Below are positions 6,117 through 6,730 of a DNA stretch of 9,601 nucleotides, piece after piece. Under the pieces are notes generated by a model. That model saw nothing but the letters and a program-made list of their open reading frames with translations. It was not told the origin of the DNA and did no database searches. The DNA lies in IMG/VR virus record IMGVR_UViG_2698536337_000007. One strand, 5' to 3'. The position numbers and the translations under genes are program-made. Every line of letters starts with the position of its first letter. Position 1 is the stretch's first letter. Source of the DNA: a virus. Lineage: Duplodnaviria; Heunggongvirae; Uroviricota; Caudoviricetes.

Positions 6117-6134
6117 CAGATGTGAGTAAACTCC

Positions 6135-6470
6135 TTATGGACTTTGTTGTTTTAGTCCATAAGGACATATTTGCAGAGTGCAACGGTTATTAAAGCATTC
6201 ATTCAATACGTTATCTGTATTTGTAGGGCATTCCTGGCTATTTTTGATTGAATTCCAGAATGTTTTATTGAATGGTACTACGTTGTAAATGGTTACAGGT
6301 AGCACTTTGTTATTGAGCATGATGCCTGTGTGAGTCAGTGTAAATATACTTTCAGGAGGTAAGAAAGCATCCGATTGATACCAGATTATTAATTTTATTT
6401 TACTCCATATGACTGAAAAAGATATTCCGCATGATGGCTGGATAACTGTATCAATCACAATCCACTTCAT
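6135..6470 (-). CDS. Hypothetical 111-aa protein, Cys-rich C-terminal third, in an AT-rich segment antisense to the late operon
   Basis: Minus-strand ORF with SD AAGGA 6 nt upstream of the ATG. C-terminal motifs [25 protein letters not shown]. Six ATA codons. Local GC is clearly below the flanking phage DNA. No recognisable family. Confidence 0.5.
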
Positions 6471-6510
6471 TTAGTTTCCTTGTTTATGCCTTGCTGGTGA
6501 TGTTCTGAAA

Positions 6511-6537
6511 AGTATAAATGATATTTTTGAATGTAAA
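6511..6537 (-). promoter_or_regulatory. Candidate sigma70 promoter for the antisense ORF (-35 TTTACA, -10 TATACT, about 15-16 nt spacer)
   Basis: Reverse complement of 6532-6537 is TTTACA and of 6511-6516 is TATACT; about 40 nt upstream of the ORF start. Confidence 0.35.
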
Positions 6538-6730
6538 CCATAGAGCAGAATTATTTTTCTGATGTTGTTTATTGTTTATTTAAATGCAGGGTGGTTTATA
6601 TCTCGTCTTGTAGTTTATCCATGCATATCTGCTTGATAATCAGGTTTTTATTTAAGGTATGGTTTTGTGTTTTTTCTGTATTACATGTCAGGTATTTTAA
6701 AGAATTATTTTTCAGATGGTGGAAAGAACC

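Follow-up and report, generated by a model that had tools for sequence, protein, structure and literature searches.

A moron among the late genes of a lambdoid Escherichia coli prophage very probably carries iraL, a known RssB anti-adaptor gene

The closest described relatives of the gene discussed here encode anti-adaptors of RssB. One of them, residing in the potB prophage of E. coli CFT073, was introduced as iraL by Hryckowian et al. (2014, mBio 5:e01043-14; PMC4045071). According to this work, which was done with CFT073 and Shigella sonnei, deletion of iraL lowers the log-phase level of sigma-S and halves its half-life; in K-12, the gene plus 100 nt of its upstream sequence raises sigma-S (PMC4045071). 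The protein copurifies with RssB. [quoted passage not shown] In CFT073 the gene is expressed in uninduced log-phase cells, where it raises sigma-S, and its 5'-RACE end reads ACATCACCAGCAAGGCATAAACAAGGAAACCA (PMC4045071). Enrichment of the gene was noted for uropathogenic, prostatitis and Shigella isolates (PMC4045071). The other close relative is IraM (YcgW) of K-12, which is induced by PhoP and has been crystallised in complex with RssB (PDB 8twd). A more distant one in terms of sequence is PmrD.

The window, i.e., the whole stretch of 9,601 nt analysed here (IMG/VR virus record IMGVR_UViG_2698536337_000007), represents the late-regulatory region of a lambdoid E. coli prophage. Its listed genes are all on the plus strand, with a single exception (Table 1). 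We consider this minus-strand gene, with a probability of about 93%, to be iraL, the fourth RssB anti-adaptor gene of E. coli, sitting as a moron in the late region. It is an already known and characterised gene, not a new one, and the window provides just one more carrier prophage.

Table 1. Features of the window and their positions (position 1 is its first letter)
Feature	Position	Strand	Remarks
DUF968 gene	603-1661	+	
rusA	1662-2042	+	
Q-type antiterminator	2039-2860	+	
DNA methyltransferase	3433-4491	+	
Three tRNA genes	4532-4781	+	
STnc100 sRNA, copy 1	4858-5010	+	RF02076, 94.9 bits; partly N-masked
117-aa ORF in second insert	5334-5687	+	phrog_2873, function unknown
43-aa ORF in second insert	5723-5854	+	match to phrog_1470 (TciB-like)
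STnc100 sRNA, copy 2	5920-6109	+	Rfam RF02076, 132.4 bits (gathering score 47); left flank of iraL
Terminator of STnc100 copy 2	6079-6100		
AT-rich island (moron)	6110-6730	.	~620 bp, GC ~0.33; from STnc100 end to start of nanS-p 5' fragment
Perfect 12-bp inverted repeat	6132-6165	-	arms 6165-6154/6143-6132, 10-nt loop; covers last codons and stop, the stop inside the 3' arm
iraL CDS	6135-6470	-	ATG start, 111 aa
Cys4 tail	residues 79-111 of IraL		
Shine-Dalgarno AAGGA	6477-6481	-	inside the 33-nt 5' UTR, 6 nt before the ATG at 6470
Transcription start site	6503	-	inferred from identity with the published CFT073 5'-RACE end
Sigma-70-type promoter	6511-6537	-	-35 TTTACA (6537-6532), 15-bp spacer, -10 TATACT (6516-6511)
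PhoP-box-like direct repeat TGTTTATTGTTTATTTA	6566-6582	+ (reverse orientation)	putative; one mismatch; 63-79 nt upstream of start site
Truncated nanS-p (DUF1737) 5' fragment	6731-6771	+	right flank of the island; duplicate, runs into N mask
nanS-p-type sialate O-acetylesterase	7134-8987	+	
P21-type holin	9060-9353	+	
N runs	4996-5155, 5291-5301, 6772-6894, 9431-9498		

The assignment rests primarily on the comparison with CFT073. The window protein is identical to CFT073 IraL (WP_000871291.1, potB prophage) in 110 of 111 residues, the only difference being L74S. At the DNA level, 334 of 336 nt of the coding sequence (99.4%) and 264 of 268 nt of the upstream region (98.5%) are the same. The published definition of iraL demands at least 95% identity to CFT073 in the coding sequence and at least 96% in the promoter region (PMC4045071); the window gene lies above both values and also has the 5'-RACE start sequence. 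The substitution L74S is non-conservative; it is located in the helix formed by residues 69-77 and adjoins the interface residue 75. The exact L74S protein is nevertheless common: it was found on about 1000 contigs, and the representative of its UniRef cluster is named IRAM_ECO27.

The earlier note on this DNA, made from the letters alone, had not recognised any family. The family is, however, known: homology search and structure prediction place the protein among IraM/IraL/RssC with their PmrD-like fold. The NCBIfam model of IraM, NF007393, is matched with 162 bits (cut-off 121), and the crystallised IraM core, PDB 8twd_A, with an E value of 6e-31. Pfam yielded no hit for the ORF, neither at E up to 0.01 nor up to 10; the family was reached via RefSeq annotation, NCBIfam and PDB instead. 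Nomenclature is confusing. RefSeq/PGAP calls the gene product 'anti-adapter protein IraM', the UniProt-derived names are IraM as well, and PHROGs lists the family as phrog_4407 with unknown function. The published name IraL is carried by none of these annotations.

What the earlier note had read from the sequence about the gene itself holds. The 111-aa ORF is present on the minus strand, its six ATA codons were confirmed by count, and the AAGGA motif is where a Shine-Dalgarno sequence had been proposed. It is indeed the only well-supported gene on this strand; other minus-strand ORFs overlap plus-strand genes having family matches. What would have refuted the earlier note, the ORF being a piece of a larger, disrupted gene, is not the case: the protein is full length when compared to the family model (positions 1-113 of 114).

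The AT-rich island was likewise borne out by a GC profile: some 620 bp with a GC content of 0.33-0.35 lie between flanks of 0.51-0.53. With N excluded, the iraL coding sequence has 0.345 and its 298 nt of upstream DNA 0.322, as against 0.511 (1-4500), 0.528 (5900-6130) and 0.535 (7134-8987) in the surroundings; the very low values around 6600-6900 are in part caused artificially by the N run 6772-6894. The bounds of the island, about 6110 and about 6730, are breaks of homology to the collinear but iraL-less prophage of ATCC 11775 and to E. albertii, CFT073 and strain 042. At its right side the 5' end of nanS-p occurs twice, once as the fragment beside iraL and again as the start of the full-length gene (7134-7175). 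In CFT073 and 042 the same DUF1737 fragment is a pseudogene according to RefSeq. A full-length nanS-p is the immediate neighbour of iraL in E. albertii NBRC 107761.

The segment has a promoter of its own, runs antisense to the late region, deviates in GC content from its surroundings (0.33 vs 0.52) and is present or absent between collinear phages, as is typical of a phage moron; neither the collinear prophage of ATCC 11775 nor the Stx2a phages contain iraL. The gene was also found in four deposited phage records, e.g., vB_EcoS-640R1, which fits a mobile moron.

The sigma-70 promoter that had been proposed from the sequence was found as described. Its 15-bp spacer is short and suboptimal, yet the iraL promoter of CFT073 has the same spacer and was shown to work (PMC4045071). 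CFT073, 042 and a variant of 88% identity have the same two hexamers; a variant of 75% identity has ATTACA/TATGAT. Positions 6503-6472 of the window read ACATCACCAGCAAGGCATAAACAAGGAAACTA, and 31 of these 32 bases match the published 5' end of CFT073. The start site deduced from this match lies 7 nt below the -10 hexamer and leaves a 5' UTR of 33 nt.

The view of an independently transcribed, acquired moron that is expressed in the lysogen, as put forward in the earlier note, is supported, since the CFT073 literature shows an own start site and uninduced expression. What is said here of transcription, of binding to RssB and of an effect on sigma-S has been carried over to the window allele from CFT073 and S. 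sonnei. By this analogy, iraL would be transcribed from its own sigma-70 promoter in uninduced log phase, as in CFT073. The product would then bind the response-regulator-like adaptor RssB, as reported for CFT073 and S. sonnei. Bound RssB would no longer hand sigma-S (RpoS) to ClpXP, and half-life and level of sigma-S would rise during growth. In short, IraL would pre-load growing cells with the general stress sigma factor. Going by lambda-type late regulation, iraL, which points against the Q-antiterminated transcript of the late genes and converges with STnc100 copy 2 (the 3' end of which is only 25 nt away from the iraL stop codon), is presumably expressed in the lysogen and would be opposed by convergent transcription after induction.

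A structural model agrees with the family assignment. AlphaFold2 (AF2), run with 51 family sequences, predicts residues 1-78 as a PmrD-like beta-barrel plus helix (strands in 2-66, helix 69-77) with a pLDDT of 86-96. The top Foldseek hit is 8twd_A, the IraM chain of the complex with RssB (TM 0.90 when normalised to the target, rmsd 1.2 Å), followed by the PmrD structures 2jso, 4hn7 and 2rqx (TM 0.71-0.75, again normalised to the target, probability 1.00). AF2 and Foldseek thus both see the antiparallel PmrD-like barrel with its flanking helix as in 8twd, and the predicted fold also agrees with the published description of IraM (PMC10844676). When the IraM contacts listed in PMC10844676 are mapped by alignment onto the window protein, Cluster I, which touches the receiver domain of RssB (I4, I6, W22, K26, I42), is conserved in 5 of 5 residues. 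Among the contacts to the C-terminal domain and linker of RssB, four residues are substituted: T13S and L75I in Cluster II, H63N and I64V in Cluster III. [quoted passage not shown]

Might the gene nevertheless be IraM proper, whose induction via PhoP/PhoQ follows Mg2+ starvation and which grips RssB by both domains? The PGAP label says IraM and the IraM subfamily model is passed. Upstream of the promoter, moreover, there is a PhoP-box-like direct repeat with one mismatch, the sole match of this quality (at most one mismatch) in the window, and the 75% allele has a perfect one at the equivalent place. Such a match would, however, arise locally by chance with a probability of 4.6%, and the stretch is deleted in the 88% allele, which keeps the core promoter. 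The repeat, which looks undescribed in the accessible iraL/IraM literature, is a putative site and a weak lead only. Amino acid identity to K-12 IraM is just 61%, the sequences upstream of the two genes do not align, and the genomic context differs; in identity, promoter and context the gene departs from what an orthologue of K-12 IraM sensu stricto would look like. It complies instead with the published definition of iraL, the authors of which saw no overlap between iraL and iraM matches (PMC4045071). Finally, the residues contacting the C-terminal domain and the linker of RssB are substituted, and the two-hybrid data show binding of the N-terminal domain only (PMC4045071). Identity with IraM proper is therefore, in our judgement, improbable.

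Even less credit can be given to two further readings. The match to the PmrD fold, the typical moron position and the unknown function of phrog_4407 might suggest a PmrD-like connector for a response regulator other than RssB, e.g., PmrA, or an anti-phage or superinfection-exclusion moron. With only 13-20% identity to PmrD as against 64% to the solved core of IraM, with RssB binding and an effect on sigma-S published for a protein that differs in one residue (PMC4045071), and with no match in a PADLOC search, we regard this as extremely unlikely. The Pfam model of PmrD, PF11183, does not match the window protein even at E up to 10; precomputed PF11183 tags are found on representatives of IraM-family clusters. 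Nor is an inactive remnant that decays in a cryptic prophage a plausible reading. L74S, a non-conservative change in the helix 69-77, the short spacer and the rearranged surroundings, a mosaic of repeats including sRNA modules with the duplicated nanS-p 5' end as truncated right flank, could be taken as signs of decay. The ORF, however, is intact and full length; hexamers, Shine-Dalgarno sequence and start-site region are identical or nearly so to the functional unit of CFT073, the working promoter of which has the same 15-bp spacer; and a protein seen unchanged on about 1000 contigs hardly looks like a relic.

Two elements that the earlier note had attached to the gene fared less well. The perfect 12-bp inverted repeat at the 3' end exists as described. 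When the segment was simulated 2000 times with a first-order Markov model, arms of at least 12 bp appeared in 0.1% of the runs, and the 141-nt 3' region of iraL folds with z = -5.2. As a selected structure the hairpin was rejected: of its 12 pairs, the 88% and 75% alleles have lost 3-5 through substitutions, and compensatory changes that would maintain it in these diverged alleles are missing. Nor is it a canonical terminator, as it has no U tract; no canonical terminator was found downstream of iraL. We describe 6132-6165 as a predicted mRNA 3' hairpin and claim no function for it.

The minus-oriented terminator noted upstream, at 6912-6940, is real (6940-6919 plus T run). From the iraL start site it is some 410 nt away on the upstream side, and the nanS-p 5' fragment and the 123-nt N mask lie in between. 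It does not belong to the iraL unit, because the segment that holds it (6895-7140) is the ordinary nanS-p upstream region of Stx2a phages, with 96% identity, and is not linked to iraL elsewhere; beside iraL in CFT073 and 042 the terminator is absent. A role as insulator of the iraL unit was rejected on the same grounds. On the minus strand, 6912-7000 weakly resembles OmrA-B in Rfam (25.2 bits, where 40 is the gathering score; E 0.027) and could be an unannotated antisense sRNA or a mere terminator.

A prominent characteristic of the protein is its cysteine tail. Its motif reads C-x8-11-C-x4-5-C-x4-C-P-[YF]-G. A profile search of 1.84 billion representative proteins yielded 94 relatives, the full-length ones belonging, as far as cluster names tell the taxonomy, to Salmonella, Citrobacter, Enterobacter, Kosakonia, Intestinirhabdus, Dryocola, Franconibacter and Pantoea. 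A locus search with a 14-sequence alignment returned loci of Escherichia, Shigella and Citrobacter only. Each of the 51 aligned members is recognised by NF007393 (E up to 0.001); identities go down to 20%. In an alignment of 45 members C81, C97, C102 and W72 are invariant, and C92 is present in 44; the exception, P0033, has the equivalent cysteine two residues further along. With 51 sequences, C81, C97 and C102 are the only invariant columns, and the four cysteines plus W72 are the most conserved positions.

For crystallography, residues 79-107 of IraM had been removed as proteolytically unstable; the tail was called less conserved and was predicted to be flexible (PMC10844676). In the AF2 model its pLDDT increases from below 50 to 50-69 with the deeper alignment. 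In the accessible IraM/IraL literature there is no mention of zinc, metal or the tail cysteines, and the conserved Cys4 motif looks undescribed there. Against PDB, the tail profile gave only an insignificant hit to a CCCH zinc finger (E 0.92), which we discarded as evidence, the resemblance being limited to the spacing of cysteines. Conservation leads us to the tentative, rather doubtful idea that the tail might be a Cys4 module, metal-binding or redox-sensitive, that sets stability or activity of the anti-adaptor. A second and smaller possibility would be a PhoP-responsive element upstream of a constitutive promoter. If the tail binds metal, it may be a zinc knuckle or possibly an Fe-S site. 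The disulfide-rich or metal-binding small domain suspected in the earlier note is, with these invariant cysteines, still a candidate. The Cys4 tail is absent from the only solved structure; its conservation suggests that the anti-adaptors themselves might sense metal or redox state.

The neighbourhood is a mosaic. Between both STnc100 copies there is a second insert (5291-5878, GC 0.42). Its 117-aa ORF found no match in Pfam, NCBIfam or PADLOC; in the corresponding segment of other genomes RefSeq annotates a DUF3927 family protein. At 6895, right behind the N mask, the window reads GGGGTTTTCTT; this sequence corresponds to the 3' end of a third STnc100-like copy in ATCC 11775 (our locus L016, 7279-7520), a copy that shares about 70% identity with STnc100 and is perhaps PasD-like. 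A third STnc100-like copy probably hides under the N mask 6772-6894 of the window, too. These repeated modules of sRNA and terminator, which bracket cargo genes, look like recombination joints by which morons are shuffled between prophages. As a single piece, 4500-7300 of the window was seen in none of the complete E. coli genomes, the best coverage being 75%.

The iraL segment as such is widespread. Positions 6100-6760 were found in 1446 of 5426 complete E. coli genomes (27%). In JJ1886, which had been reported with two copies of iraL (PMC4045071), the genome search located the segment at two places. The order STnc100/DUF3927, iraL on the minus strand, DUF1737 fragment and holin is common to CFT073, 042 and one deposited phage record.

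The slot of iraL, just upstream of nanS-p, is the stx slot of Stx phages. A few Stx2-type prophages of STEC have an IraL-like gene of 75% identity directly downstream of stx2B and upstream of nanS-p, as seen in our loci L011-L013 (3001-3336, plus strand), in NZ_CP022279.1 (STEC299, from a marmot) and in NZ_CP076706.1 (O170:H18). It occupies the same slot in the same orientation as the window gene, with the hexamers ATTACA/TATGAT and a perfect PhoP-box-like repeat upstream. This copy beside stx2B shows a hotspot at which virulence and stress-regulation cargo are swapped. Another relative, only 32% identical to IraL, is encoded at 4001-4318 of our locus L010 from CP178306.1, labelled E. coli ECGI0523; judged from its sequence, it may be a third, more distant IraM-family paralogue in a genome labelled Escherichia.

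How, then, does the locus compare with the described systems? With PmrD it shares the principle of a small beta-barrel protein that binds the receiver domain of a response regulator. Their partners differ: PmrD protects phospho-PmrA, while that of IraL is RssB. Sequence identity is 13-20% for PmrD, in contrast to 64% for IraM over the solved core, and PmrD lacks the Cys4 tail.

K-12 IraM is much closer. Both proteins belong to NF007393, have the PmrD-like barrel, agree in 5 of 5 receiver-contact residues and possess the four C-terminal cysteines. At 61% overall identity they are nevertheless distinct, and IraL has a C-terminal extension of four residues, QQSP. Also, K-12 iraM adjoins the e14 element, whereas iraL sits in a lambdoid late region; the promoters are unrelated; and IraL acts in unstressed log phase, unlike the PhoP-induced IraM.

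The iraL unit of CFT073, finally, is practically the same. It has the same -35, -10, Shine-Dalgarno and start-site sequences and the same local prophage context, with STnc100/DUF3927 on one side and the DUF1737 fragment on the other. The prophages differ in what lies around: the window has, in addition, the DNA methyltransferase, an extra STnc100 copy with the 117-aa ORF and, downstream, the full-length nanS-p esterase, most of which is deleted in CFT073.
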